Source: Ostreococcus lucimarinus (lineage: Eukaryota). From it: 64,000 bases of DNA. Made by a program: the position numbers and the translations under genes. The notes below the pieces were generated by a model. It was not told where the DNA came from, searched no databases, and saw nothing but the letters and a program-made list of their open reading frames with translations. Position 1 is the stretch's first letter, and each line of letters begins with the position of its first letter. This document shows positions 40,343 to 64,000 of this stretch, one piece after another. The stretch lies in assembly GCA_000092065.1 (NCBI GenBank), contig CP000588.1. One strand, given 5' to 3'.

Positions 40343-42568
40343 CTATGGGAAGTATCGCGTCGGCGTGGGTTTGGGTTTGGCCGGCGCTTGTTTGCTCTTC
40401 GGCGTCCACTCGCATGCGCTCGGCTCTGCCGCGTGCGCCTTCTTCTTTCCACCGGGCTTCCACTCGCACGCGGATCCCTGTGCGACGGCTCCATGCGCCG
40501 CCTTATGCTCGGCACGGTGCTTGATCTGCGTCTCGAGTGCCACACGGACGTTTTCATCCAAAACATGAGCCATTTTGCACATCTTCAGGAGCTCGTACGG
40601 TTCATCTTCAATCGGTCGATCGCGGTCCGCCGCAACCACGCATATGAAACCAAAAGGCTCCGTCGTGCCTGCCTTGCACCGAAGCTGGTGCGTATCACCC
40701 GGTGCGGTATACCCGACGTCACCCACCCCAAGATGGTAAGACTCCAGACCGAGCTGGATTTCGCCTTCCCCTCGAAGCACTACGACGACGTGTTCGTGTT
40801 GGTGGTGCTCGAGCGTCGTCCATCCACCCGGGGCAACTTCAAAGTAACGCACGTGGAAAACTGGACTCTCTCCTCGCTTTCCGATGAGTTCGATGCGTGA
40901 ACACTCCTTGAAACTCGCCCCATCCATCTTGTACATTTCCTGCGGTACGCGCTCCCACTGAAACTCTCCCTTCTTTCTATTGAGTACCTTGCTATGATTT
41001 CCGTCTAGCGGCCCCTCAGACGCGTGTTTAGTTCCATTTCTCTTCGCCTCGGCGTCCATCAGGCTCTTCACGAGCGTCGTCAGCTCGTCAACCTTAGACT
41101 CGAGCGCATAATTCTTCTCTTTAAGCGCGCTCATTTGAGCAACGGCTTCAGGGTCAAGGCCCACCGTCCACGGCGTCGACGGCGGCGCAGCCGGATACGT
41201 GCCGTGCGGAGTCAGAGGGTATGGGCTATGTGCACTCGAACTCTCGTCTACGAGTTTCAATCTGGGTCGCATGCCGCTTCCCGGGGTGAAAAGTCCGTTG
41301 CTGTAGTGCGTTGGCACGTGATAGCTGCCAGGTTGTGATTCTCGAGGCCCGTAGATGTCGGTGCGACCCGCCATAGTCAGGATGTGCCTCGCATTCGCCG
41401 TCAAGTCCGAGCTATGGCTGTATAGTGATCCACCGACGAGGAGTAAAACATCTTGACCGTACGTCTCCATCATCACTTTAACCTTGTCGAGCGTCATGCC
41501 GCCGCCCGGACTCGGTAAGATTGACGGGTGGTGCGCCAAGACTCGCCTGGCACCGTGAACAATGTCTTTGCACTCTTCAACACTGAAGCCAAACCGCCCG
41601 CCAAAGTTTGGGAAAATAGTCGCATCTGCACCAGCCAATCGCGGTAGCAACCCGAGCAGGACGCCATGAGCAAATCCGCGAATGGTGTTTTGGCTTCCGC
41701 CGCCGAGCATGGCGCCGAGAATAGCGGGGTGCGCGATGATGGGAAGCCCAAAATCGGGATCTTCTGCCAGCGCTCGCATGCTATCCAAACCCGTGATTCC
41801 TGGAATCATCAACACCGCCCCAGCACCCGCGGCCTTGGCGAACTTGGCGCGCTGTACGACCAAGTGCGCCGGAGCGTTGATGCACGGCGCGTAGATGCAC
41901 CGCCGTCCCGTCTCCGCGTTCGCCCGTTTCACCGCCGCCGCACACGCCCGCACGCGCTCCTCATACGGGGCGTACCGTTGATTCGCCAATCCATGATCAT
42001 CCTTTATGATGTCAATTCCCCCCTTCGCGAACGCGTACGCCATTTCCGCAAGTTTCTCGCTCGGCGTCCCCATCGGCTTGAGCGCCGTCATCACAATGGG
42101 TCCGCGTTCGACCCCGAGCAATTTCCTCAGCCCCTTCGCCCCGAACCTCGCTCCCGCGAACTTCCCTAGCATCGCATCCGAAAGTTCCACGTCTCGCACC
42201 ATCACCCGTTCCTTTATGCTCGTGTTCCCGAAGATGACGTTCACCAGCTGCGGCAACTCGCCGCCCGCGCAGTCGTCGGCGTACCGCACCTTGGCCCTGT
42301 ACACGTCCCCACTCGCGCCTTTCCCGCGCGCGTCCACCCCCGAAGCGCACCGCTCGATCGACACGCATTTTCCCACGACGTGCTCGTTGATCCACGTCCC
42401 CGGCGGGACGAGCGCTTCGGGTAACTCGACGGTTTGCTCGAGACACAGCGCGTCGACGATCTGTCGCGCCTCCGCGTTCGACGTCGCGTCGACGTCGTAC
42501 GTGACGTGAAAGCACGACGACGCGCCGTCGCGCGTTAACGAAGGCGTCGCCGGGGCGTCGCGTGGCAT
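40343..42568 (-). CDS. RuBisCO-like protein (form IV RLP large-subunit fold) fused to a C-terminal cupin domain, 741 aa.
   Basis: The N-terminal ~400 aa are collinear with RuBisCO large subunit/RLP (GTWINEH, KPMGTPSEKLAEMAYAFAKGGIDIIKDDHGLANQ, a Gly-rich loop). The C-terminal ~250 aa contain a cupin-type His cluster (PGGWTTLEHHQHEHVVVVLRGEGE...GDTHQ), preceded by a coiled-coil and Pro-rich linker. Confidence 0.65.
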   Translation of the reverse strand: MPRDAPATPSLTRDGASSCFHVTYDVDATSNAEARQIVDALCLEQTVELPEALVPPGTWINEHVVGKCVSIERCASGVDARGKGASGDVYRAKVRYADDCAGGELPQLVNVIFGNTSIKERVMVRDVELSDAMLGKFAGARFGAKGLRKLLGVERGPIVMTALKPMGTPSEKLAEMAYAFAKGGIDIIKDDHGLANQRYAPYEERVRACAAAVKRANAETGRRCIYAPCINAPAHLVVQRAKFAKAAGAGAVLMIPGITGLDSMRALAEDPDFGLPIIAHPAILGAMLGGGSQNTIRGFAHGVLLGLLPRLAGADATIFPNFGGRFGFSVEECKDIVHGARRVLAHHPSILPSPGGGMTLDKVKVMMETYGQDVLLLVGGSLYSHSSDLTANARHILTMAGRTDIYGPRESQPGSYHVPTHYSNGLFTPGSGMRPRLKLVDESSSAHSPYPLTPHGTYPAAPPSTPWTVGLDPEAVAQMSALKEKNYALESKVDELTTLVKSLMDAEAKRNGTKHASEGPLDGNHSKVLNRKKGEFQWERVPQEMYKMDGASFKECSRIELIGKRGESPVFHVRYFEVAPGGWTTLEHHQHEHVVVVLRGEGEIQLGLESYHLGVGDVGYTAPGDTHQLRCKAGTTEPFGFICVVAADRDRPIEDEPYELLKMCKMAHVLDENVRVALETQIKHRAEHKAAHGAVAQGSACEWKPGGKKKAHAAEPSACEWTPKSKQAPAKPKPTPTRYFP

Positions 42569-45398: not shown

Positions 45399-48300
45399 TT
45401 GACGCCAACGCTCCTTTGTAGATGTCCCAATTGCCCTGCGGCGCGAACGCCACAGCATCGCGCGTCGATGTTAGTAACCGATCTCGCGTTCGCTCGTACG
45501 TCTCAAACGATGCATCACAACCGTCATCGCGCGCGATCCGGACGCTCGACGCGCTCAACGACGACGAATCGCGCGCGAACGCGCACGACGGTCCGGTCGG
45601 CGGCTCGAGCGCATTATCAAGACGGCGACGCGCACGCGGCGTCGCAGGAGGGTTACTACAGGTTCCCGGTGATCCGTGGTAACGAGTTGTTCTTCGTGTG
45701 CGAAGACGACGTGTACGCGACCACGATCTCGGGGCTCGATAAACGCGAGAGCGGCGCGGAGACGACGCCGCCGCGACGGCTGACGCAGGCGCACGGCGCG
45801 GTGCAGCGGTTAGTCGTCTCTCCCGATGGATCACGCGTCGCGTTCGCGTGCGCAGAGGATGGATACACCGAAATATACGTCGTGGACGCGCGTGGAGGTC
45901 CTATGAAACAGTTGACACACATGGGGGCTTCGTACGCGCGGGCGTGCTGCTTTTCAGAGGATGGTCGACGGGTGTACTTTACGTCGAGCGGGGCGACGGC
46001 GGAACCGAATGGAGACGAGCTTTGGGTGGTGGACTGCGATGGTGGAGCGCCAATGAGAATGAACCTCGGTCCAGTGCATGATTTCGACGTGCGCAACGTG
46101 AACGGGAAAGAATTGGTTGTCCTCGGTCGTAATACTGAAGACACGGCGACGAAACACTGGGACGGATACGCGGGCGGCGCCGGTGGAGAGATTTGGTATG
46201 GGACCTTAGATAATTTGCTGCGACTTGACTTGCGTCTTCCAAACGAGCGTTTGTTGCGAAATGTTGGCAACGTGTCGTGGTTTGACGACGAGCACGTCGC
46301 GTTCACGGAAGCGGGCGGGCGTTCGACAGCGTTCAAGGCTAAAATTGATACCAATGAATTCAACACTCGCATCGTAGATTGTCAAGGATTCAGTGACTCC
46401 ACAGCAGACAACGAAGACATTAAGTACTTTCCCGTGCGTCATCTGAGCATTGATGTCAGTAGGCAAAGAATCGTGTACACCAGAGGCGGGGATGTATTCG
46501 TGGCAGAAGTTGTAGGTGGCGAACATAAGTCACCTATAAGGTTGCCTATTGAGTGGCGTGGACCTCGTACACAGCTTGCAAAACGATTTGTTCACGCGGA
46601 TGATTGGATCGAAGACTGGGATTTACACCCAGAAGGCTTGACGATGATGGTTCTTGTTCGCGGCCAACCGTTCACGATGGGCATCTGGGATGGACCGGTG
46701 TTGAGTTATCCGCCAGCGACGAAACTGCGATCACCCCAAAGCTCAGTGATAGCACCACTGGCGTCTCTTGCACAAAAGAGTCAAGCGCGTGTCCGGCATG
46801 GGGCTTACTTGTACGACGGTGAACGTCTCGTTTTTGTATCGGACGCCAGTGGTGAGGAGGACATTGAAGTGCATTGGGAAGAAGCTGAGCGACCGGCAAA
46901 ACGATTAGGATTGCATCACGAGTTGCTTGGAAGAGTAGAACGCCTGATACCTAGTCCAGAGGCGCCATTGGTGGCGATCGTGAACCACAGAAACTCACTG
47001 TTGATAGTCAACGTTGAAACTGGGGAAATGCGAACGGCTGACACGTCGAGTGAAGTGGACGGAATCGACGATTTGACGTGGAGTCCTTGCGGGAATTGGC
47101 TCGCTTACACGTACTACTTAAACAACGAAAGATCCTGTATTCGCATTCTCGATGTTCGGAACGGAAAGGTGTTCGATGCCACAAACCCTGTGCTCGGAGA
47201 TCACTCACCTGCGTGGGATCCCGACGGCAAATATCTGTACTTTTTAGGATCTCGAGAACTCGAACCGGTGTACGATGCCGCCACGTTTGGCTTAAATTTT
47301 CCAACTGTTGAACGCCCTCATTTGATCATACTGCAAAAGGATTTACGTAATCCACTTCTCAAGGAGCTCAGACCGCCGTACGATACGGAATCGTCGTCTG
47401 GCTCTGACTATGACTCTGAAACAGATAGTGATGTGGGAAGAAAGATGGATAAACGAGGCAATGGAAGGGACTACATGCCTCGCAAGAAGCCAGTTGTGGA
47501 TAAGGATGATGATGGCAGCGACTGGTCAACTGTGGATGGAGACAGTGATGACCAAATCTTGTCGAGCGGCGACGAGGATGACGATTACGAATCAGACGCG
47601 TCATATTACCATGAAGACGCGCCCCCTGCGATTGAGATTCACATCGATGGCTTGACAGAAAGGGTAGTTGCGCTCCCAATGCCGATATCACGTTATGATT
47701 GCCTTTGCGGTCTTGAAGACGGACGATTTATGGTTGTTGAATACCCTCCGAGTCGCGGCTCTCCCGGAAGCGTTGGTTTGGACTACTCGTCCGATGAAGA
47801 TGATGACGGTTTGGGTTCCCTTATTTCTTACAGTATCCGAGATTTGCGTCGAAGTATCTTAATACACGGTGGCGTGAGCGAAGTGTCACTGTCGATGGAT
47901 CGCAAATGCATGGTTGTGGAAAAAGAGTCGGATGGATTCCTAGAGCTTCGCGTTTACAAAGCTGGCGTGCGGCCGGAGGAAGAAGGGAGCGACAGCGAAG
48001 AATTGGATCAAATGCGGTGCGATCGTAGGACTGGCTTGGTGAATCTAGATGGTCGCATTCGTGTACTAGTTGATCCTGCGAGAGAGTGGGCACAGATGCT
48101 CGGGGAAGTGTATCGTCGTCTTCGCGACGACCTCTGGACTGAGAAAATTTGGAATGAAACGATTGGCGATGACTGGGAAGTCATGTTTGAGGAGTATGTG
48201 AAAGTGCTTCCAAAAGTGAGTACGCGGACCGAGTTTGGGGATTTATTGCGTGAAATTGCCGCTGGCGTTTGTTACTCGCACGTGGCTATCACGTCTGGTG

Positions 48301-49574
48301 ATCCTGGACGCTCCCATCGCAGACACTCTGCTGGGTATCTCGGCGCTGACTTCACTTGGGACGGCAAAGTCGGCGGTTATCGCATCTTGAACATCGTGAA
48401 GGGTGACATATGGGACGACATGCGAGGTGGTGTGCTCAGCAAACCGGGCGTCAATATCCACGAGGGTGACATACTTCTCTCGATCGATAGAGTACCGCTC
48501 ACCGAAGATGTTCCGCCGGCTGCGTTGTTGATTGAGAAGGGTGGCGTTGAAGTTCTGTTGACGGTCAAAATTGATAGCGACGGCAAAGGTGGTATTGACG
48601 AAGCGCTCGACAGACTCATGCTGAAAAAACAAAAGAACAAGAAAAAGGACAAGAGAGATGACAACGCACCGAAGAAAGGTGATGTCATCCCGGTGCGTGT
48701 CCGAGCCATGCACTCTGAAATCGATGCGAGGTATCGCGATATGATTCAGAAGCGCACGGAGCGAGTCCACAGCCTGAGCGATGGCGTCGTCGGCTACTTG
48801 CACATTCCAGACATGGAAAGCACAGGGTACTCCGAATTTTGGCGTCACTATGCGTCTGAAGTTCGCAAGGGAAGCTTGATTCTCGACTTGCGAGGTAACA
48901 CAGGCGGACACATTAGTGAATTGTTGCTCGCTAAGCTCTCGCAGCGCGCATTGGCTTGGGACATCCCGCGACGCGGCGAGGTGCAAGTTTATCCATCCAA
49001 CACGCCTGGCCCGCTCGTGATGCTGGTCGATCAACGCACAGGCTCTGATGCTGAGCTCATGGCGGAATCTTTCAGAAAACTAGGTTTAGGACGAGTCGTT
49101 GGGATGCGCACTTGGGGTGGTTTGCTCGCCATCAACGGCGTCGCCGAACTCATCGATGGGTCCGAGTTGAGTTTGCCTTCACAAAATGTGCTCCTTGTCG
49201 ACGAGGCGAAGGGCGTAGACGCGAGATCCGACGCGACACAAGCGTACACGAACGCGGTGGAAAACCGCGGCGTCATTCCGGACGTCACAGTTGACATATC
49301 TCCCGCTGAATATTCTCGCCGCGAGGACCCGCAGCTCGACACCGCCGTGCGCGAGGCGTTGCAGTTACTCAAAGACACCGGCGCCGCCGGCGTCGCGACC
49401 TACCTTCGCAAGATCCGCGAGGACGAGACAACGGCCGCTGAATTAGAACGCAAACTGACGCGCAAACCTTGGTCGTTTTCCACGTGGGCGCCGCTTCCGC
49501 CGACCAAGGAGGAAGAAGAGAAGCAACTTCGAGCCAAGCGCCGCGCCGGGCGAAATAATATCCCGCGCCCGTGA
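45399..49574 (+). CDS. Tricorn protease homolog (beta-propellers, PDZ and S41-like catalytic domain) with a eukaryote-type acidic insertion.
   Basis: N-terminal YYRFPVIRGNELFFVCEDDVY corresponds to tricorn LLRFPDIHGDKIVFVAEDDLW. The C-terminal block VVGYLHIPDMESTGYSEFWRH...GNTGGHISELL...TGSDAELMAESFRKLGLGRVVGMRTWGGLL matches TIGYIHIPDMGMMGLNEFYR...GGGFVSQLI...[30 protein letters not shown], including catalytic Ser. An inserted Asp/Ser-rich tract lies at ~47390-47640. Confidence 0.8.
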   Translation: MTPTLLCRCPNCPAARTPQHRASMLVTDLAFARTSQTMHHNRHRARSGRSTRSTTTNRARTRTTVRSAARAHYQDGDAHAASQEGYYRFPVIRGNELFFVCEDDVYATTISGLDKRESGAETTPPRRLTQAHGAVQRLVVSPDGSRVAFACAEDGYTEIYVVDARGGPMKQLTHMGASYARACCFSEDGRRVYFTSSGATAEPNGDELWVVDCDGGAPMRMNLGPVHDFDVRNVNGKELVVLGRNTEDTATKHWDGYAGGAGGEIWYGTLDNLLRLDLRLPNERLLRNVGNVSWFDDEHVAFTEAGGRSTAFKAKIDTNEFNTRIVDCQGFSDSTADNEDIKYFPVRHLSIDVSRQRIVYTRGGDVFVAEVVGGEHKSPIRLPIEWRGPRTQLAKRFVHADDWIEDWDLHPEGLTMMVLVRGQPFTMGIWDGPVLSYPPATKLRSPQSSVIAPLASLAQKSQARVRHGAYLYDGERLVFVSDASGEEDIEVHWEEAERPAKRLGLHHELLGRVERLIPSPEAPLVAIVNHRNSLLIVNVETGEMRTADTSSEVDGIDDLTWSPCGNWLAYTYYLNNERSCIRILDVRNGKVFDATNPVLGDHSPAWDPDGKYLYFLGSRELEPVYDAATFGLNFPTVERPHLIILQKDLRNPLLKELRPPYDTESSSGSDYDSETDSDVGRKMDKRGNGRDYMPRKKPVVDKDDDGSDWSTVDGDSDDQILSSGDEDDDYESDASYYHEDAPPAIEIHIDGLTERVVALPMPISRYDCLCGLEDGRFMVVEYPPSRGSPGSVGLDYSSDEDDDGLGSLISYSIRDLRRSILIHGGVSEVSLSMDRKCMVVEKESDGFLELRVYKAGVRPEEEGSDSEELDQMRCDRRTGLVNLDGRIRVLVDPAREWAQMLGEVYRRLRDDLWTEKIWNETIGDDWEVMFEEYVKVLPKVSTRTEFGDLLREIAAGVCYSHVAITSGDPGRSHRRHSAGYLGADFTWDGKVGGYRILNIVKGDIWDDMRGGVLSKPGVNIHEGDILLSIDRVPLTEDVPPAALLIEKGGVEVLLTVKIDSDGKGGIDEALDRLMLKKQKNKKKDKRDDNAPKKGDVIPVRVRAMHSEIDARYRDMIQKRTERVHSLSDGVVGYLHIPDMESTGYSEFWRHYASEVRKGSLILDLRGNTGGHISELLLAKLSQRALAWDIPRRGEVQVYPSNTPGPLVMLVDQRTGSDAELMAESFRKLGLGRVVGMRTWGGLLAINGVAELIDGSELSLPSQNVLLVDEAKGVDARSDATQAYTNAVENRGVIPDVTVDISPAEYSRREDPQLDTAVREALQLLKDTGAAGVATYLRKIREDETTAAELERKLTRKPWSFSTWAPLPPTKEEEEKQLRAKRRAGRNNIPRP

Positions 49575-50421: not shown

Positions 50422-51864
50422 ATGGCGCTCGCGGCGCGCGCGACGATCGGCGCGACGCGGTGGACGAACGAGCGGACGATGACGAGTCGCGGACGCGCGC
50501 GCGCGAGCGATCGTCGCGCGCGGGGCGCGGTGGTGGCTTCGGGGAAGATTGATTTCACGGACGCTGGGTGTTTCGAGCTGCCGTACGCGCCGGTGGCGGA
50601 GGCGTTGCTTCCGGAGGGGCCGTGGAAGGTTGTCGAAGGCGGCGTGTGCGCGGCGAAGGGATTTAAAGTCGCGGGATATAAGGCGGGATTGCGCGCCAAG
50701 GGCACGCGCGCCGACTGCGCGCTCATCGTCGCGGACGAAGACGCGACGTGCGCGGGGATTTTTACGACAAACATCATGTGCGCCGCGCCGGTGACGTACT
50801 GTAAGAAACAGTTGGCGGGGAAACCGACGGCGCGAGCGCTGTTGATCAACGCTGCACAAGCGAACGCCGCAACAGGTGATCAGGGCGCTGCGGACGCGCA
50901 AGCGACCGCGGAGGAGTTGTCGAAATCCCTCGGCGTCGCCGAGGAGGACATTTTACTCATGTCCACGGGCGTCATTGGCAAGCGAATTAAGCTGGACAAA
51001 CTCATGCCAGCGATTCCGATTTTGTCCGCGAACGTGGAAAGTAGTACTGCGGCGGCAAACGCGGCGGCGACCGCGATATGCACCACCGATCTCGTGCGAA
51101 AGACGGTCGCGATTGAAGTGCAAATTGGCGGTAAAACCGTTTGCATGGGCGGCATGGCCAAGGGGAGCGGGATGATTCATCCAAATATGGCGACCATGCT
51201 CGGCGTAGTGACGTGCGATGCGGACGTGACGCCCGAAGTTTGGCGTAACATCACCTCCCGCGCCGGGGCGGCGTCTTTCAATCAAATCTCCGTCGATGGC
51301 GATACGAGCACGAACGATTCTTTGGTGTGTTTCGCCAGTGGCAAAGCCGGCAACGCCAAAATCACGAGCGTCGATTCTGCCGAAGGCAAGCTTCTCGAAC
51401 AAGCACTCACCGCGGTCTGCCGCGGTCTCGCCAAAGCCATCGCTTGGGACGGTGAAGGTGCGACGTGTTTGATCGAGTGCAACGTCTCTGGAGCCGCAGA
51501 CGACGAAGACGCGCGCGTCATTGCGCGTTCCGTCGTCTGTTCCTCGCTCGCTAAGGCAGCCATCTTCGGACACGATCCAAACTGGGGGCGATTGGCTTGC
51601 GCTGCGGGGTACGCCGCGCCGGTGAAGAACAGATTCGATCAAAATGATCTCAAGCTCTCACTCGGCCCGCACCAGCTCATGGATAAAGGTCAACCGCTCG
51701 ATTTCGACGCCGTCGCCGCCAGCCGATACCTCAAGGAAGTCACCGGCGTTCACGGCACGTGCGTCGTCGACATCTCCGTCGGCAACGGATCTGGCCGAGG
51801 CCAAGCCTGGGGCTGCGACTTATCGTACGATTACGTCAAAATCAACGCCGAATACACGACGTAG
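50422..51864 (+). CDS. argJ: Glutamate N-acetyltransferase / amino-acid acetyltransferase ArgJ (plastid-type, with presequence).
   Basis: ArgJ signature, including the autocatalytic NMATMLGVVTCDA threonine site and collinear N- and C-terminal domains. Confidence 0.9.
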   Translation: MALAARATIGATRWTNERTMTSRGRARASDRRARGAVVASGKIDFTDAGCFELPYAPVAEALLPEGPWKVVEGGVCAAKGFKVAGYKAGLRAKGTRADCALIVADEDATCAGIFTTNIMCAAPVTYCKKQLAGKPTARALLINAAQANAATGDQGAADAQATAEELSKSLGVAEEDILLMSTGVIGKRIKLDKLMPAIPILSANVESSTAAANAAATAICTTDLVRKTVAIEVQIGGKTVCMGGMAKGSGMIHPNMATMLGVVTCDADVTPEVWRNITSRAGAASFNQISVDGDTSTNDSLVCFASGKAGNAKITSVDSAEGKLLEQALTAVCRGLAKAIAWDGEGATCLIECNVSGAADDEDARVIARSVVCSSLAKAAIFGHDPNWGRLACAAGYAAPVKNRFDQNDLKLSLGPHQLMDKGQPLDFDAVAASRYLKEVTGVHGTCVVDISVGNGSGRGQAWGCDLSYDYVKINAEYTT

Positions 51865-55710: not shown

Positions 55711-56781
55711 CTAGTCCTCGATTTCGACGGTTTCGTCGTTGATTTGGTTGAGGTACAAATCGTAGTAGCGACCGGCGTTTTCTAAGTCGCCGAGCTCGGT
55801 GTAGAGATCCGCGATGGCGCCGAGGGCATCCATGTCCCCAGTGTTGTCGTCTAACTGCTGCGAAATGTTTAACACTTCCTTTAAGTCGGCGATGGCGCCG
55901 ACGCGGTCGCCGAGCTGACGCTTGGCGGCACCGAGACCTCGCGTAGCGCGGCGCACAGAGACCAAGTCACCGGTGACGCGCGCCAACATCAAAGACTTCT
56001 TAAATGCATTCAATGCGGCCGCGAATTCGTCGGCCCGCAAAAGCTTACGTCCCTCACGAAGAGCAAGCTTGAGCTCTTTCATGTCTTCCGACAGCGTGTC
56101 CCAGTCGTCTACGCTGGACATCGTGGCCGCGGCGGCTTTTGCCGCGCCCCCCCTGGCAGCTTCCAAAACCGACGCGTCGGTGCCCATGGAAGCTCTCGAC
56201 GTCGACATCAAACTCGCGTTAATCTTACGCAGCTTATCGTTCAACATCGTAATCTCCTCCTTCTTCTGATTCGCGGAAATCCCGCTCGCCACCGCACCCG
56301 CTAAAGCAACAAACTCTGTGATGCCGACGATGTCGATGCCAAACGGCGTCACGCACAGCGTCTTCCCCGCCAGCACTTGTTGTCTCGACTGCGCCTCACT
56401 CTCCTCCCGGAACTTGTTCAACTCTTCTTGCGCTTCACCTTCCTTCTCCCGTCTCAATTCCAACGCCTTCGCCTCCTCCGCTCGCAATTCACGATACAAC
56501 GCGTCGATGCGTTCGCGCGACTTCGCCTCCTCCTCCAGGCGTTTGGCCAAGAGTTCCTCCCCTGGTCCTTTCACCGCGCGCGCCGCGTCCGCGCCGAGCG
56601 TCATCGCCCCGAGCGTCACCGACGCGCTCAGGAGCGCCATCCGTCGTCCGCGTCGAGTTTCGTCGACGTTCGCGTCGTCTCTCGCCGTCGCCGTCGTCGT
56701 CGTCGTTTGGATCTTTTGCGTCTTTTGCGTCGTCGACGCGCGCACGACGGCGCTCAGCGACGCGCGCGAGGTGGCGAACAT
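55711..56781 (-). CDS. FLU: FLU (FLUORESCENT IN BLUE LIGHT)-like TPR protein, a tetrapyrrole-synthesis regulator.
   Basis: TM helix, coiled coil (ITMLNDKLRKINASL resembles FLU LQRLNEQLRQINAAL) and C-terminal TPRs. ATRGLGAAKRQLGDRVGAI and GAIADLYTELGDLENAGRYYDLYLNQINDE closely match Arabidopsis FLU AARGLGASLQRQGKYREAI and GAIADCYTELGDLEKAGKFYDTYIARLETD. Confidence 0.7.
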   Translation of the reverse strand: MFATSRASLSAVVRASTTQKTQKIQTTTTTATARDDANVDETRRGRRMALLSASVTLGAMTLGADAARAVKGPGEELLAKRLEEEAKSRERIDALYRELRAEEAKALELRREKEGEAQEELNKFREESEAQSRQQVLAGKTLCVTPFGIDIVGITEFVALAGAVASGISANQKKEEITMLNDKLRKINASLMSTSRASMGTDASVLEAARGGAAKAAAATMSSVDDWDTLSEDMKELKLALREGRKLLRADEFAAALNAFKKSLMLARVTGDLVSVRRATRGLGAAKRQLGDRVGAIADLKEVLNISQQLDDNTGDMDALGAIADLYTELGDLENAGRYYDLYLNQINDETVEIED

Positions 56782-57026
56782 GGCGATGCGCGCGCGTTAG
56801 TTGACGGACGTCGTCGTCGCGCGCGGCGGACGCGCGTGCGCTCTGAAGTCGCGCGCGTGCGCGATAAAGTGACGTACGCGGGCGGCGCCTTTGGATAAAG
56901 CTCGGCGCGCGCGGGACGGGACGACGGGACGGGTCGCGTTTGGTCGCTTGTGTTGTATTCATGAATTGGTGGGGAGCGCGCGAAGGCACACGCGCGATGC
57001 CGCGATTAAATGCTACCGGGCTCGGC

Positions 57027-57926
57027 TCAGGCGTCGTCGCGAGACTTGCGAAGAGCCTCGAGCTCGCTCTCGATGGCCTCGCTCACGGGACGGCCCTCGG
57101 GGAGGGCACCCTTGGAGCTGGCGCCGGGGAGGGATTTCTTCAAAGCTGCGAGTTCGTCGTCGACGCCGCCAGCCTCCAAAGCCTTGAACTGGGCCTCGAG
57201 GTTGTCGGGAGCGGCGAACACGCCCATGGCTTCGGCCTCAGCCTCCATGCCGAGCACCTTTTCTTCCATGCGCTCGAACGCGCCGAGCGCGGACGACGTC
57301 GACACTCCGCTCACCATATCGCTCACCGCTTTGTTCGTCTTCGCGCTCGCCGCGCGCGCCTTCAACGTATCCTTCTTACTCTTCGCCTCCGCCATCTTGC
57401 CCTCGAGCAAGCGCGTATTCGCGATCAATTTATCCACCGCTTCGCTCTGCGCGTCCAGGTTCGCCTTCATCGATTCGGCGTTCTCCGCGTACGACTTTCG
57501 TCTCGTCAGCGCTTCTCTCGCCAGGTCCTCGTCGCCTTTCTCCATCGCCAACTGCGCGCGCTTATACCAATCATCAGCCGCCTTCGTCGCCGCGTTATAC
57601 TTCGTCTCAAGCTGTTTCTGCGACGCCATCACCTGCGCCGTCGCCTGCCGCATCTTGATCAAATCCCCCTGCATCTCATTCACCGTCTGATCGAGAATCT
57701 TCTCCGGGTCTTCCGCCGCCGTGATCAGCGAGTTGGCGTACGACGAGATCACGCGCGTGAACCGGCTGAACAGGTTCGCGCGCGTCACCACGGCGCCTCG
57801 CGCGCGACGCGGCGCGCGCGCGGCGCACGAGATCGCACGATCTCGACGACGAAGCGTCGACGCGCCGTCTCGAAACGACGACGCCGTCAGCGCGGACGCG
57901 CGCGGCGCGGCGCGCGCGAGCGACAT
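57027..57926 (-). CDS. VIPP1: VIPP1/PspA (IM30) membrane-remodelling protein with presequence.
   Basis: PspA/VIPP1 helical core ([50 protein letters not shown]...) preceded by an Arg/Ala/Ser-rich transit-like peptide. A start was chosen at MSLARAAP; the listed ORF extends to 58028. Confidence 0.85.
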
Positions 57927-58046
57927 GGCGCGATGCGATGCGATGCGATGCGATGCGCGCCGTCGCGTGCGCGCGGTGCGTCGCGCTCGGATTCGCGCGC
58001 GGCGGAGTGCGGGCGCGGACGACGGCACAGCGCGGCGCGCGCGGCG

Positions 58047-58189
58047 ATGAGCGCGCGACAGCTTCGCGCGGCGCGGCGTCGCGAGGACGCGATCGCGGGC
58101 GTCGACGACGACGCGTCGGGGGCGGAGAGCGAGGACGCGGGCGCGGGCGCGGCGACGCGGGCGGGGAATCCGTTCGCCGCGCTGTTGGG

Positions 58190-58228
<39 letters not shown>

Positions 58229-59792
58229 GACGCGGGCGGCGGCGGAACCGACGCGGGAACCGACGCGGGAACCGACGAAGAAGGCGCGGAGGCGCGGAGG
58301 GAAGAAACGGGCGGGCAAGAGGGACGGCGGGGGGAGCGATGATGAATTTGACGCGCTCGTGCGAGAGGTGACGGGGCTGGACGTGTCGTCGGCGGCGGCG
58401 GAGAACGCGACGGTGAGTCGAGGGAAGAGCGGCGCGAAGGCGGCGTCGAGTTTGCTGTGCGTCGATATGCGCAATATGAAGGCGGAGGATGAGCTTAAAC
58501 GCATATTCGGTGGTAAAGTCATCAGCGCCGTGGAGGCGGAGGAGGTCGGTAGGCTAGGAGGGAGGACGGCGGCGTTTCGAGCAAAGCTGCAGCGGCGGTG
58601 CACGTTTAGCGCGTATCGCGACCAGTGGTCGACGTATCGAAGTGGGGGGTTGTATATGGTGACTTCTGGCGTCGTCGATGCCGAATCTGGGATGTCTGAC
58701 TTCTCTTTCGCTTGGAAAGATGACTACGCGCAGGCAAACTTTGACTTTGAAATCGCCGTCGGTTCGCACGACCCCAACCGGTTATTTAGTTTGTTGAACC
58801 ACTATCCGTGGCACTTAGAAACGCTGTTGCGGATATCCGAGCTCTATCATTACAGCGGACAAGCGCAAGAAAGCTCGGAAATTCTCGAAAGATGTTTGTA
58901 CGCGTGCGAAAGAGCTTGGCATCCGAATTTCACCGCCGCGGCTTCGAGTGGGCTTGCGCACTTGGATGCGTCGCAACCTGAAAACAAACCGATGTTCGAG
59001 GCACTGTTTCGGCACGTCATCGCGCTCACTCGTCGTGGATGTCACAAAACTGCGTTGGAATGCGCGAAACTATGCCTCGGATTGGACCACACTGACCCGA
59101 AAGGCATGCTACACATGATTTCGTACTTTGCACTCCGAAGCGGGGAAGAAGAGTGGTTGCTCAGATTTGTCGAAGATTTCGGGCACAAGCGTTGGGTCGG
59201 TGGGAAATGGGAATTGCATGGTAGCTTGCTCAACTTCCCAGACTTTGCATACAGCAAAGCCATGGCTCTGTACACCATCGCCGACGACATCAAAGTCGCT
59301 GATGCCGAGCTGTTGAAGGCGATGCTTACATATCCGTATGCCCTCACCGCGACACTCATGCGTCTCGAAGCCGCCGTCTCGAGCGACAAAGATTGGAAAG
59401 AAATCCTCGCGCATGAGCATTTCGATTTTTCCAACTGCGCGCTCGACTCCAGAAGTCTCGAACACGTGAGCGACATTTTCGCCACCCGCCACCATCTACT
59501 TTGGCGTCCAGATCCCATCTTACATTGGGCCAAGCGCGTCGCTCGCAGCGCTATCCAGCTCGTGGATTCCATGAAGCCCTCAGACATGATTGACGGACTG
59601 ACGGCTGCCGAATTCGTGACGATTTCCCTTCAAAACTGGCCCGCGAGTGAAGAAAATGATTTCACCCATCTCGTAGACGACGATTTCACCGACGTCGTCA
59701 AGCGCGCCCTTCCCGAGGACGATCCCTTGGCTGCGCGCGGACCAAACGACCCGGATCATTTCTCCGACGACGACGACGGGGACGAATTTTAG
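58047..59792 (+). CDS. TCF25/Rqc1 (ribosome quality-control complex subunit) homolog.
   Basis: Starts [14 protein letters not shown], like TCF25 MSRRALRRLR. DUF654 blocks include [35 protein letters not shown] and [25 protein letters not shown]. The 950-aa listed ORF's first 369 codons are antisense to VIPP1. Confidence 0.7.
58191..58229. repeat. (GACGAG)n microsatellite encoding a (DE)n acidic tract within TCF25.
   Basis: gacgaggacgaggacgaggacgaggacgag... is directly visible. Confidence 0.85.
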
Positions 59793-59902
59793 CTTTTAGC
59801 CTAGCGTTCATTCATTCGTGCTGCAAACCGTCGCGTCGATATTTCAACCGAGTCGACGTTGAAACCCTCAAGTGGTCCGCCGCATTCGCCGACGCCCGCG
59901 AC

Positions 59903-62900
59903 ATGTTCGCCGCCGCGAACGTCACCGCGGTCGCCGCGATGCGAAGCGCGCTCCCTGCGTCGTCTTCCGCGTCGTCGTGCGCCCGCATCGCGCGCGCGCA
60001 CCCCGCGCTGGGTTCGTCGTCGAGCGCCTTCGCGTCGCCGATGCCAATCGGCGCGACGCCGCGCCCCGCGCGCGCGACCGCGGGACGCGTGCGCGTCACC
60101 GTGCGCGCGAAAGCATCGGATGGTGATCGACGCGCGAAGACCGGAGATGAGAAAGGGAAGAAGACGAAGACGAAGACGAAGACGAAGTCGACGACGGGGA
60201 AGAGGGAAGGTTCGAGCGGGACGAAGAAGAAGTCATCGAAGGCTCGAACGCCCAAGGGAACGCCGTTCGTCGAAAAGAAGAGGATAGCGGTGAAAGACAC
60301 GTATGTGAGCCCGATCGGGGAGCTGGAGAGAAAGCTTCCGGGGCGCGGGGTGTGGTTTCGTAAGGGGAACGCCACGACGCAGGATGCGCGCCCGGACGGA
60401 TTGGGAGCGAGCTCGAAGCCTTTGCTCACGCCGGGGACACAAGCGTGGTACAAGGAGTGGAAGAGACAGAGAAAGATTGACATTCAAAATAAAGCTAGCA
60501 GAGAGTTGCGAAAGACGGCGCGGAAACCGGTGGAGGATTATGCGAAACCCGGGCAAGCGGCGGGCAAACCCTTGAGCATCGACGAGCTCAAGTACACAGC
60601 GCTGGGGCGGGCGAAGATACAATCGGCACGCCAGCATATTGCGTACAACCGTTTTGTCCACAGCATCTTGAATGAAGAAATCAAGGAGCTTTACGTGAGC
60701 GTGGATGCAGTGGCGAGGTACGCTATCGTGTACAAGGATGGGCGAATAGCGTATTGTCAAGTGGCGCCGCACAACACTGAGGTTTACAATCTGACGCAAA
60801 GCGTCGGATTAGAAATCAACCCAACGATGGCAGAAGCATCGAGCCATACGTTGGCAGCCGTTGGCGATCGCGGGGCGCAGATTCGGACGTTTATTGCTGG
60901 TTACGGTGTTCCTTCGTTAGGCGTTTTCTTCATATGGGCCATCGTCTTTTACATGCAACGTTTCAGAGGTGACTGGGAAGATCGTCAAAAGATTCTCGAG
61001 CTCGAGCGCGCTGAAGAGGCGCAGAGGCAAGCCGAAAAGGGCGATCCGCGTATCAACGCTTTGGTGGAAATGTTACAGAAGATGGATGAGAATGATCCGC
61101 GACGCGACCAAGTCAAGCGCGAGATTCGCAACCGCAAGTCTGCTATCGCGCGTGCGAACGGCGATAAGAAGGATGCGGCGGCGAAGGCGGCCGATGGAGA
61201 CCAAATGGGTGCCGCGAATGCGTTCATGCGAGTTGGCGTCAAGGTAGTTAAGAAGAAGGAAGTTGAGGAGGAAGAGTTGAGTTCGGACGAAGAAGACGAA
61301 GTTGAGGCTTTGATAGACCCAGCCAAAGCTAAGGCTAAGAACAAAGGCCCGAAGAAAGGTCGTGTGAACACCAAGATGAAACTTCGCGACGAAAGCGAAG
61401 TCGTGAAGTTTGACGACGTCGCGGGTATCGGCACGGCGAAGGTTGAACTTCAAGAAGTTGTCGATTTCTTCTTGCAGCCGGAAAAATTCAAAGAGAGCGG
61501 TAGCAAGGTTCCGAAGGGTGTCTTATTGACGGGTCCGCCGGGCTGTGGTAAAACGCTTCTTGCGCGAGCCGTCGCAGGCGAAGCAGGTGCTACTTTCTTC
61601 TCCTTGGCGGCTTCTGAATTCGTGGAGATGTTTGTCGGTGTTGGTGCGGCTCGCGTGCGCGATTTGTTCCAACAAGCCAAAAAGCAATCGCCCTCGATCA
61701 TTTTCATCGATGAGCTAGATGCAGTCGGTCGACCTAGAGGCGGCGGTGGCTCGGGTAACGATGAACGCGACCAGACGTTAAACCAGCTGCTCGTGGAGCT
61801 GGATGGTTTTGGTAGTGACACGCAAATTGTGTGCATTGCAGCGACGAACAGAGTTGACGTTCTCGACAAGGCGCTCATTCGCCCGGGACGTTTCGACCGC
61901 AAAATCGTCATCCCGAAGCCCGATTACACCGGCCGTAAAGAAATTTTACAAGTTCACTGCAAAGGTAAACCGGTCGATTCGAATATTGATTGGAATGCGC
62001 TCTCTGGAGAAACGGAGGGCTTCAGCGGAGCAGCCCTCGCATCGGTCGTGAATCTCGCCGCTCTTCAGGCGGCGAAAAGTTCGCGGGAGTTGGTGACAAT
62101 GGACGATTTTCAAACTGCGCTTGAGATGGAGACGTTAGGCAAGGTTTTACCACAAGGTCTCGGTGAGGAAAACGAGAAGCGTTTGGCGCTCATCCATTCC
62201 GCGGCGGCGGTTGCGTATCGTTGTTTGTGCAATGACATGGGTGACATTTCTTTTGTCACGATCGTGGCTCGAGAAAGCAACGCCGAAGGTCAATTGGCTC
62301 TCGCTGAAAACCCCGTAGCACTGCGTCCTGGAGCGTTTACCAAGGGTTTCATGAGACGTCACTTGCGCGCGTGTTTCGTCCCATCCATCGCTGAGGAGGT
62401 CTTCTACGGTTTCGACAACTGCACGAAGGTTACTGCGCCTTACACCGGTCGTGCGCGAGAAATCGCGAACTTCTTCGTTCACAATGCAGCGATGAGTGAT
62501 GAAAATAGCGAGTTTATGTACTATCCTACTGGCAACGTCATTGAAGTGACTGACTTCTTGCGTGCTGAACGCGAAGAATACCGACTTCCATCGACAACGG
62601 ATGATCGTTACGCCCGAGCAGATGAAGAGGTGCGCCGTTTGATGGAGAGACAATACGCCGCGGCGAGGCGTTTCGTCGAAAAACAAAAAGACGCCATCGA
62701 TGCTCTAGCGAAGGTAGTTATGGAGAAGAAGACTGTGCAGGCGGAAGAGGTTAAGGCGATCATCGACAAGCACGCTATCATGCCTTACGACGACGAAGAA
62801 TTTCCGAGCGCGTTTGCGACGGACCGCAAGCTTCTTAAAGATTGGAACGGTACGAAGCCGGCCGATTACATGGTCGGTGGCTTAGCTCCCACTAGTGATT

Positions 62901-62908
62901 CTGATTAA
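59903..62908 (+). CDS. FtsH-like AAA+ protein lacking the zinc-protease motif (FtsHi, 'inactive FtsH'), 1001 aa, with presequence and a long N-terminal extension.
   Basis: Complete AAA module (Walker A GPPGCGKT, Walker B IIFIDELDAV, second region of homology). In the M41 domain the HEAGH zinc-binding motif is replaced by LIHSAAAV. One TM helix (VPSLGVFFIWAIVFYMQ). Contains a (GAAGAC)n run at 60163..60190. Confidence 0.8.
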   Translation: MFAAANVTAVAAMRSALPASSSASSCARIARAHPALGSSSSAFASPMPIGATPRPARATAGRVRVTVRAKASDGDRRAKTGDEKGKKTKTKTKTKSTTGKREGSSGTKKKSSKARTPKGTPFVEKKRIAVKDTYVSPIGELERKLPGRGVWFRKGNATTQDARPDGLGASSKPLLTPGTQAWYKEWKRQRKIDIQNKASRELRKTARKPVEDYAKPGQAAGKPLSIDELKYTALGRAKIQSARQHIAYNRFVHSILNEEIKELYVSVDAVARYAIVYKDGRIAYCQVAPHNTEVYNLTQSVGLEINPTMAEASSHTLAAVGDRGAQIRTFIAGYGVPSLGVFFIWAIVFYMQRFRGDWEDRQKILELERAEEAQRQAEKGDPRINALVEMLQKMDENDPRRDQVKREIRNRKSAIARANGDKKDAAAKAADGDQMGAANAFMRVGVKVVKKKEVEEEELSSDEEDEVEALIDPAKAKAKNKGPKKGRVNTKMKLRDESEVVKFDDVAGIGTAKVELQEVVDFFLQPEKFKESGSKVPKGVLLTGPPGCGKTLLARAVAGEAGATFFSLAASEFVEMFVGVGAARVRDLFQQAKKQSPSIIFIDELDAVGRPRGGGGSGNDERDQTLNQLLVELDGFGSDTQIVCIAATNRVDVLDKALIRPGRFDRKIVIPKPDYTGRKEILQVHCKGKPVDSNIDWNALSGETEGFSGAALASVVNLAALQAAKSSRELVTMDDFQTALEMETLGKVLPQGLGEENEKRLALIHSAAAVAYRCLCNDMGDISFVTIVARESNAEGQLALAENPVALRPGAFTKGFMRRHLRACFVPSIAEEVFYGFDNCTKVTAPYTGRAREIANFFVHNAAMSDENSEFMYYPTGNVIEVTDFLRAEREEYRLPSTTDDRYARADEEVRRLMERQYAAARRFVEKQKDAIDALAKVVMEKKTVQAEEVKAIIDKHAIMPYDDEEFPSAFATDRKLLKDWNGTKPADYMVGGLAPTSDSD

Positions 62909-62951
62909 TACAATCCTATTGATTGATTCAAGACTTACACATAACTAATAA

Positions 62952-63989
62952 CTAATAATCCGACGTGGAAAGCCCAAGCGCGTCGCACACGCTTCGCATG
63001 TCGCTCGGCATCTTTGCCTGAAACGTAAGCGATTCACCTGTTTCTGGATGCTTGAGCTCGAGATTGAACGCGTGAAGAGCTTGTCTTCGAATACTCAAAG
63101 CCCCACCCCAATCGTCGTACGGTTCTCGCGCGTCTCGACTGTCCGGAGGCGTCAGTTGGTGCATCTGCGTCGGATTTTCAGAGTTGCACGCGGCGAGTTG
63201 CGCCGCACTCCAAACCATTTTCGGTTTTTCTTCATCGCTTTGCGCACTCCATCGCAAGTGCGGCCCATACAGCGCATCGGATACAATAGGCAAGCCTGCA
63301 TGCGCCAAGTGCACGCGAATCTGATGCGTTCGACCTGTCAGCGGCGTCACGCGAACGAGCGCGGCGACGGCGGCCGGCGGAGCTCGCGGCGACGCTGTCA
63401 TAGGCGACACCCCTTTTGGCGTCGTCATCGCGGCCACGCTTTCGTCCTTGATATCGAACAGCGAAGTACTCGCACGAGCGATGATTTCGCACGTCGTTCT
63501 CGCGTCTTTTCCTTCTCCGCTGAAATCAACCGTGCGCGCTTCCTGCACGATTCCGTGGTCACCGATGGGCGCGTCTACGATGAAGCTGTCGCCGCAATCA
63601 GGCGGCACGACACCCACAGACACGGCCAGGTACGTCTTCTTCGCCGTCTTCTCTTGAAACTGTCCCGCTACATTCGCCACCAAGTGCTGCTTCTTCACGA
63701 ACACGGCCACGCCCGAGGTGTCCATATCGAGTCTATGCACGATGTACGGCGTCGCCCCGTCCATATGGTGCAACGCCCGCGACAACAACGAATTCCCCTC
63801 AAATCTATGATTCGGATGAAACCTCAGATTCGGCGGTTTATTCACCACCAAAAACTCATCATTCTCAAACACCACGTCCAACGGCGTCTCGTCTCGCACC
63901 AATTCAATCGCTAAACTCGCCCTCCGCAGCGTCGTCTTCACTCGCGCCGTCGGCACCCCCAGCGCCTCCGCGCACGCCTCCGCCGTCAT
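62952..63989 (-). CDS. RluA-family pseudouridine synthase (possibly continuing beyond the window end).
   Basis: Catalytic HRLDMDTSGVAVF (Asp nucleophile) and RluA-family blocks. The listed ORF starts 11 nt from the window edge. Confidence 0.75.
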   Translation of the reverse strand: MTAEACAEALGVPTARVKTTLRRASLAIELVRDETPLDVVFENDEFLVVNKPPNLRFHPNHRFEGNSLLSRALHHMDGATPYIVHRLDMDTSGVAVFVKKQHLVANVAGQFQEKTAKKTYLAVSVGVVPPDCGDSFIVDAPIGDHGIVQEARTVDFSGEGKDARTTCEIIARASTSLFDIKDESVAAMTTPKGVSPMTASPRAPPAAVAALVRVTPLTGRTHQIRVHLAHAGLPIVSDALYGPHLRWSAQSDEEKPKMVWSAAQLAACNSENPTQMHQLTPPDSRDAREPYDDWGGALSIRRQALHAFNLELKHPETGESLTFQAKMPSDMRSVCDALGLSTSDY

Positions 63990-64000
63990 TCGCTCCCCAT

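Follow-up and report, generated by a model that had tools for sequence, protein, structure and literature searches.

Gene Structure and ATPase Module

The stretch of Ostreococcus lucimarinus DNA analyzed here (64,000 nucleotides of contig CP000588.1, assembly GCA_000092065.1; hereafter the window) carries on its plus strand, at 59903..62908, a complete and intronless gene of 1001 codons plus a stop codon, which probably encodes a protease-dead FtsH of the FtsHi2/Fhl2 type. Its ATG lies 110 bp 3' of the stop codon of a TCF25 gene and is the earliest start codon past an upstream in-frame stop; from there the 1001-codon frame runs unbroken. Metagenome gene calls (P0001, P0029, P0031, and P0033) add 15-30 N-terminal residues by way of a TTG start (59859-59902); P0001 would differ from the window by a 1-nt indel immediately 5' of the ATG, and the frame in the window cannot extend.

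The AAA+ module with its lid occupies amino acids (aa) 495-741 (61385..62125, plus strand), within which Pfam AAA matches aa 540-671 with an expectation value (E) of 4e-44 and AAA_lid_3 matches aa 694-737. A first annotation made from the letters of the window (the sequence-only reading) had described this ATPase as intact, and each of the expected elements was found: Walker A (GPPGCGKT, aa 544-551, 61532-61555), the pore loop (MFVGVG, aa 576-581, 61628-61645), Walker B (IIFIDE, aa 599-604, 61697-61714), and sensor 1 (ATNR, aa 647-650) together with the second region of homology and its arginine fingers (RPGRFDR, aa 660-666), the last two at 61841-61900. The module is 38-40% identical to that of bacterial FtsH (T. 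maritima, Protein Data Bank [PDB] 2ce7; E. coli, 7vhp), which has all of the ATPase motifs, and the motif columns are invariant in the alignment of the two; across seven close relatives (68-80% identical to the O. lucimarinus protein) the identity of the module rises to 88-94%. With every ATPase motif intact, the module looks catalytically competent.

The M41 Pseudo-Protease Domain

The M41 domain spans aa 742-962 (62126..62788, plus strand). Peptidase_M41 (PF01434) matches aa 756-953 over profile positions 5-191 of 191 (E 4.6e-12, 46.6 bits against a cutoff of 29.9), and the NCBIfam FtsH equivalog TIGR01241 matches aa 484-950 with 484.3 bits, under its cutoff of 600. A motif scan of the entire 1001-aa protein revealed neither HExxH nor HxxxH. 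The position of the FtsH zinc motif is instead held by LIHSAAAV (aa 763-770, 62189-62212), just as the sequence-only reading had it, with the degenerate motif itself running from I764 through H, S, and A to A768 (62192-62206). The third zinc-ligand position is Tyr847 (62441-62443), which aligns with the third-ligand Asp of TSGAAND in T. maritima and of GAEND in A. aeolicus.

The alignment register across this motif is uncertain by one residue. MAFFT alignment against bacterial FtsH alone sets H765 on the first His, with the Glu and the second His gone. When closer relatives are included and the alignment is anchored on the RLA triplet (RLAVHEAGCAL in P0113 versus RLALIHSAAAV), I764 takes the place of the first His, H765 that of the Glu, and A768 that of the second His; HMMER against solved FtsH gives this same register, which is the better supported of the two. 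In it, both zinc-binding His are lost and a His replaces the catalytic Glu, and in either register the protease site is dead. Relative to bacterial FtsH, the protein lacks HEXXH and the Asp third ligand, and the alignment reveals no HEXXH shifted elsewhere. Substitution of both His of HEXXH in a protein that keeps the FtsH architecture is the hallmark of the FtsHi pseudo-proteases; however, the zinc motif of Arabidopsis FtsHi1/2/4/5 has been described as "XEXXX" (PMC8197885), whereas here the Glu is replaced too.

The loss is common to the family. All seven close relatives carry HSAAA, HAAAA, or HAASA at the zinc motif, and distant members of the same architecture (P0100, P0112, and P0113) carry VHAAC, QQAAA, or HEAGC, such that HEXXH is missing in 10 of the 10 relatives that cover the site. 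The M41 domain is nevertheless 70-81% identical across the seven close relatives, against 10-21% for the presequence region, which argues for purifying selection on a noncatalytic role; it appears that the dead yet conserved domain serves a structural one. A side observation concerns P0113, which keeps H-E-A-G but in which the second His is a Cys; this HEAGC could mark a halfway stage of the decaying protease site or another way of binding metal during that decay.

The N-Terminal Region and Membrane Anchor

The sequence-only reading had described an extension of ~450 aa before a single transmembrane (TM) helix. The single helix stands but the distance does not, since ~330 aa precede the helix and ~495 aa precede the AAA module. 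The presequence predicted by that reading is recognizable at aa 1-70 (59903..60112, plus strand), which contains no Asp or Glu, is 50% Ser/Thr/Ala, and ends in ...VRVTVRA-KA; its composition resembles that of a transit peptide, and we infer a targeting presequence of the chloroplast type. A Lys/Thr-rich low-complexity stretch follows (aa 71-121, 60113..60265, plus strand), in which a GAAGAC tandem repeat of 6.2 copies (60160-60196), probably variable in length between strains, encodes KTKTKTKTK. Presequence and low-complexity stretch together are the least conserved part of the protein, with the 10-21% identity given above.

The next segment, GNATxQDARPDGL...PLLTPGT..WY..W (aa 122-231, 60266..60595, plus strand), is 48-72% identical across the seven relatives and appears lineage specific. 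An exhaustive profile search with aa 122-362 over 1.84 billion representative proteins returned 23 matches; only the four closest cover the first ~85 profile positions (aa 122-205), the distant ones beginning at about aa 205, and for aa 122-231 this search detected no relatives outside Mamiellophyceae-like sequences.

Residues 232-329 (60596..60889, plus strand; 70-77% identical across the relatives) form a predicted alpha-beta-beta-beta-alpha-beta domain of the FtsH periplasmic type. The AlphaFold model of the N-terminal domain has a predicted local distance difference test (pLDDT) score of 54 overall, and only this subdomain, with pLDDT 65-80, was used. A Foldseek search with the model yielded FtsH periplasmic domains or Ycf2-FtsHi motor subunits (FtsHi/FtsH12 of the Arabidopsis and Chlamydomonas motors) as 16 of the 16 best PDB matches; superposition on E. 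coli 4v0b gives a TM-score of 0.81 with a root-mean-square deviation of 2.0 Å, and that on T. maritima 4m8a a TM-score of 0.69. In addition, Pfam FtsH_ext recognizes this domain in 5 of the 10 family members, with a best E of 4.3e-4, and in an hhalign comparison the domain and the TM helix align with their bacterial counterparts, the periplasmic domain and TM2 (E 2.2e-4, probability 45%). Single-sequence searches against solved structures, with the first 500 aa or with a 104-aa stretch around the degenerate zinc motif, gave no meaningful match because both regions are too diverged. The domain is predicted to face the intermembrane space.

The TM helix itself, equivalent to FtsH TM2, lies at aa 330-352 (60890..60958, plus strand). 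It is the only strongly hydrophobic segment in the hydropathy scan (Kyte-Doolittle 1.9 over 19 aa), which found no counterpart of FtsH TM1, and it is 87-91% identical across the relatives. Directly after it comes the juxtamembrane motif GDWEDRQK (aa 356-363, 60968-60991), in which G356, D357, D360, R361, and K363 are shared by all members down to the most distant ones (40% overall identity; some with GDFDDRQK), a pattern that suggests a specific contact at the stromal face of the membrane. The motif opens a charged Lys/Glu-rich linker between TM helix and AAA ring (aa 353-494, 60959..61384, plus strand; 24% K+R, 21% D+E), which is 65-77% identical across the seven relatives and is kept in the more distant P0098 and P0100.

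Taken with the FtsH-like fold, the TM2 match suggests that the extension is mostly a remodeled FtsH N-terminus, without TM1 and with an added leader and lineage-specific segment. Bacterial FtsH shares the M41 fold, the periplasmic-type domain, and the TM2 equivalent; in the O. lucimarinus protein, on the other hand, TM1 is replaced by a ~230-aa leader plus lineage-specific segment, and a 140-aa charged linker is inserted between TM helix and AAA module.

Probable Assignment to the FtsHi2/Fhl2 Group

A single-sequence search with the M41 domain matched only two FtsHi chains, those of Fhl2/Ctap6 (E 1.6e-5) and FTSHI2 (E 0.0027). We then built an M41 profile from seven family members and scored all solved FtsH/FtsHi chains with it. 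The highest score belongs to Chlamydomonas Fhl2/Ctap6 (94.4 bits, E 6.4e-26), followed by Arabidopsis FTSHI2 (81.6 bits, E 5.1e-22), bacterial FtsH (57-76 bits), mitochondrial YME1 (51.6 bits), Fhl3 (51 bits), FTSHI5 (37.5 bits), FTSHI1 and mitochondrial AFG3L2 (31.9 bits each), FTSHI4 (31.5 bits), FTSH12 (25.6 bits), and Ctap1 (14 bits). The structure search points the same way: a model of AAA plus M41 (pLDDT 72) aligns over ~460 columns with FtsH cytosolic regions, and its best motor subunit in the PDB is FTSHI2 (8xku_F, rank 3, E 1.7e-35). These rankings place the gene in the FtsHi2/Fhl2 group and so narrow the FtsHi identity that the sequence-only reading had proposed. We consider it probable, with good though not complete confidence, that this is the Mamiellophyceae (Ostreococcus-type) nuclear orthologue of FtsHi2 and Fhl2/Ctap6 and that its product acts in the plastid motor.

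Fhl2 (of which Ctap6 is the N-terminal fragment; PDB 8xks_B, 8xqw, 8xqx) is a core subunit of the Orf2971-FtsHi motor of Chlamydomonas reinhardtii. At 1024 aa it is similar in length to the 1001-aa protein, with which it aligns over aa 413-956 of the latter, the M41 match covering the whole domain. The zinc motif is degenerate in both (MEASI in Fhl2, IHSAA here), although Fhl2 retains the Glu of HEXXH where the O. lucimarinus protein has His, and in both proteins a fold of the FtsH periplasmic type precedes a single TM helix; similarity of Fhl2 to the first ~410 aa, however, is undetectable by sequence. FTSHI2 of Arabidopsis thaliana (At3g16290; PDB 8xku_F, 8xkv) is shorter, at 876 aa, but like our protein has both His of HEXXH replaced (NEAAM) with the AAA motifs intact, and its structure matches with a TM-score of about 0.51. 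FTSHI2 has been reported to be soluble (PMC10500165), in contrast to the hydrophobic and conserved TM helix found here, whose strong conservation argues that the algal protein is membrane anchored. The Arabidopsis motor also has a HEXXH-bearing partner, FTSH12.

The orthologue in O. tauri (XP_022841008.1/CEG01523.1, 927 aa), the nearest of the named relatives, is annotated as "P-loop containing nucleoside triphosphate hydrolase" rather than FtsHi. P0005, the representative of its cluster, is 72-74% identical to the O. lucimarinus protein; the O. tauri protein has the same architecture and an HSAAA motif but a dissimilar presequence (10% identity), and its gene too has TCF25 upstream. A further O. 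tauri entry, OUS47021.1 (P0066; 1361 aa, "transcriptional repressor TCF25-domain-containing protein"), falls into the cluster of the FtsHi orthologue and is apparently an annotation error that fuses the adjacent TCF25 and FtsHi genes; the fused model shows that the synteny of the window is conserved. Three other orthologues, possibly Micromonas-like (P0006, P0007, and P0008; 70-75% identical), bear, at columns 1100-1331 of the alignment, a ~200-aa C-terminal extension of AEAAR/VKAEEEA-type repeats that is absent from the O. lucimarinus protein.

Genomic Setting

The DNA of the window is of the eukaryotic nuclear kind, compact, rich in GC, and poor in introns, and among its genes are those for Dcp2, TCF25, a pseudouridine synthase, ArgJ, and a class I/II aminotransferase. 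TCF25 (about 58033-59792, plus strand; Pfam E 3.8e-64) precedes the FtsHi gene and is itself preceded by VIPP1 (PspA_IM30; 57027-58028, minus strand; Pfam E 2.9e-55); the starts of these two genes are divergent with practically no spacer between them. A 950-aa open reading frame (ORF) across them (56940-59792, plus strand) was set aside as an artefactual run-on, and minus-strand ORFs overlapping the FtsHi gene were likewise rejected as frame artefacts of GC-rich DNA. Downstream, the pseudouridine synthase gene begins at 62952 and is convergent with the FtsHi gene. No tRNA or Rfam family was found in 58000-64000.

ArgJ lies at 50422-51864 and a tetratricopeptide repeat protein at 55711-56781; the FLU label given earlier to a gene of this neighborhood was not confirmed. 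The sequence-only reading had pointed to the proximity of VIPP1, FLU, and ArgJ. We rejected the gene neighborhood as functional evidence, the neighbors being unrelated nuclear genes; the proximity of VIPP1 and ArgJ carries no functional weight because a compact nuclear genome interleaves unrelated genes.

Two ORFs farther away were also noticed. A 741-aa ORF (40343-42568, minus strand), probably for a RuBisCO-like protein, is an unusual fusion in which the catalytic domain of the RuBisCO large chain (E 1e-22) is followed by a C-terminal Cupin_2 domain, and a 1391-aa ORF (45399-49574, plus strand) carries a Tricorn set (beta-propellers, Tricorn_C1, PDZ_Tricorn, and Peptidase_S41) in a eukaryotic nuclear genome.

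Proposed Role in the Plastid Motor

The plastid side of such a motor, for which the sequence-only reading had suggested looking, is reported in Ostreococcus: a ycf2-like ftsH and ycf1 are among the 75 genes common to 12 of 12 prasinophyte plastomes, those of Ostreococcus and Micromonas included (PMC4194372), and ORF1260 of O. tauri is a Ycf2/FtsH homologue (PMC5344333). The Chlamydomonas Orf2971-FtsHi complex has 20 subunits, with Fhl2 as one of six core subunits (bioRxiv 10.1101/2024.09.02.610899). According to the same study, each core subunit crosses the inner envelope with one TM helix, has an N-terminal domain with PD-FtsH in the intermembrane space and a C-terminal domain in the stroma, and lacks HEXXH; beneath the membrane the AAA domains assemble into a tilted hexameric ring around an 8-Å pore, the walls of which carry aromatic residues of the pore loops, and the pseudo-protease domains form the basal disk of the complex.

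By analogy, we propose that the O. lucimarinus protein would be imported by means of its N-terminal presequence and then placed in the chloroplast inner envelope, with its N-terminal domain (~260 residues) in the intermembrane space and its AAA and pseudo-protease domains in the stroma. There it would take one position in a hetero-hexameric ring with the plastid Ycf2-like FtsH (ORF1260 in O. tauri) and other FtsHi proteins. The ATPase site and the pore-loop Phe would drive hand-over-hand pulling of polypeptides into the stroma; the dead protease domain would serve only as a hexamerization disk, in which case substrates would be translocated rather than degraded.

Several points weigh against this placement and role. 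The full protein scores ~340 bits against bacterial FtsH, 338 against Fhl2, and 327 against FTSHI2 (range 327-343), so that at full length the bacterial and FtsHi2/Fhl2 chains appear alike, because the AAA core dominates. The putative orthology is based on ranked scores rather than on a tree or reciprocal best hits, and word-indexed homologue searches with N-terminal and M41 profiles returned only a few fragments, among which there was no named orthologue from a plant or alga. Residues 122-231 lack a sequence-detectable counterpart in Fhl2 or FTSHI2. The localization, topology, complex membership, and ATPase activity proposed above are modeled on the solved complexes, and there is dispute both over whether the complex is an import motor and over its topology: in 2023, Chang et al. 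reported that Arabidopsis FtsHi2 is soluble and stromal and that the C-terminus of FtsHi1 is in the intermembrane space (PMC10500165).

Alternative Explanations

The simplest alternative, that the lost motif is a sequencing or assembly artefact or that the gene is a decaying pseudogene, has next to no probability. The 1001-codon frame is uninterrupted, 98 blocks of independent marine metagenome assemblies contain the identical protein, and the gene is present in four independent metagenome contigs with 0, 0, 1, and 2 nt differences; an NCBI-derived 1001-aa sequence differs from the window protein at one residue. The agreement of independent assemblies excludes a sequencing error, such as one whose correction would restore the motif, and shows a genuine gene that is abundant in nature. 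The relatives, moreover, share the loss within a strongly conserved M41 domain. We found nothing in favor of this reading and regard it as refuted by the metagenome copies and the relatives. It is also very unlikely that the protein is a still active FtsH protease in which noncanonical residues (e.g., His765 and other side chains) hold the metal. One His does persist in the motif, AEE is retained on the N-terminal side of the third ligand, and the M41 fold is conserved; on the other hand, the better register has both His ligands lost, His765 in place of Glu, and Tyr in place of Asp, the score of 484 against the NCBIfam FtsH equivalog falls short of its cutoff of 600, and the variation of the motif among relatives (HSAAA, HAAAA, HAASA, VHAAC, and QQAAA) is as expected for a site free of catalytic constraint. 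An inactivated relative of the mitochondrial m-AAA or i-AAA proteins is a similarly remote prospect: although in green algae an Ala/Ser/Arg-rich, acid-free presequence does not suffice to tell whether the destination is the plastid or the mitochondrion, the M41 profile scores of YME1 and AFG3L2 are far under those of Fhl2 and FTSHI2, and the periplasmic-type domain followed by a single TM helix resembles the plastid motor subunits.

A different kind of alternative accepts the protein as a subunit of the Ycf2-FtsHi ring but gives the ring another main task, i.e., quality control, extraction or assembly of membrane proteins, or lipid-linked envelope biogenesis. Chang et al. question the model of a single stromal pulling motor (PMC10500165), Orf2971 has been tied to both translocation and quality control (PMC9421593), and the Chlamydomonas complex contains the lipid-related FAD6a, FaxL, ACP2, and Ctap7; furthermore, sequence cannot separate pulling for import from pulling for other ends. 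Cryogenic electron microscopy, however, shows each of the six subunits with its C-terminal domain in the stroma, TOC-TIC components copurify with the Chlamydomonas complex, and the pore loop and ATPase motifs are of the polypeptide-translocase type. We therefore regard a main task other than import as unlikely, although it deserves more weight than the readings above, and we retain the FtsHi2/Fhl2 subunit of a plastid import motor as the preferred reading.

Significance

Both the family and its structure were known beforehand, as was its dead protease site, and the gene adds no new mechanism or family. What is new is the explicit identification of FtsHi2/Fhl2 in Mamiellophyceae, together with the lineage-restricted N-terminal segment: public records name the protein only "P-loop NTPase" or "cell division protease FtsH," and we found no treatment in the literature of Ycf2-FtsHi or FtsHi proteins in Ostreococcus, Micromonas, or Mamiellophyceae. 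The value of the result lies in annotation and comparison. A bolder thought is that picoalgae, with their minimal genomes, run a streamlined Ycf2-FtsHi machine in which aa 122-231 and the conserved charged linker replace auxiliary subunits of the intermembrane space or envelope known from Chlamydomonas (Moc, Ctap7, and others). Its sole support is the lineage restriction of aa 122-231, and we hold it to be improbable; if it were true, Ostreococcus would be a minimal model for the essential parts of the motor.

The assignment would extend the FtsHi2/Fhl2 subunit to the Mamiellophyceae, early-diverging and ecologically dominant marine green picoalgae. With its very small genome and its amenability to transformation, O. 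tauri may offer a convenient system in which to examine the topology of the complex and its function, both of which are disputed. Together with the plastid ycf2-like ftsH and ycf1, the presence of this subunit supports a machine older than the split between chlorophytes and streptophytes.

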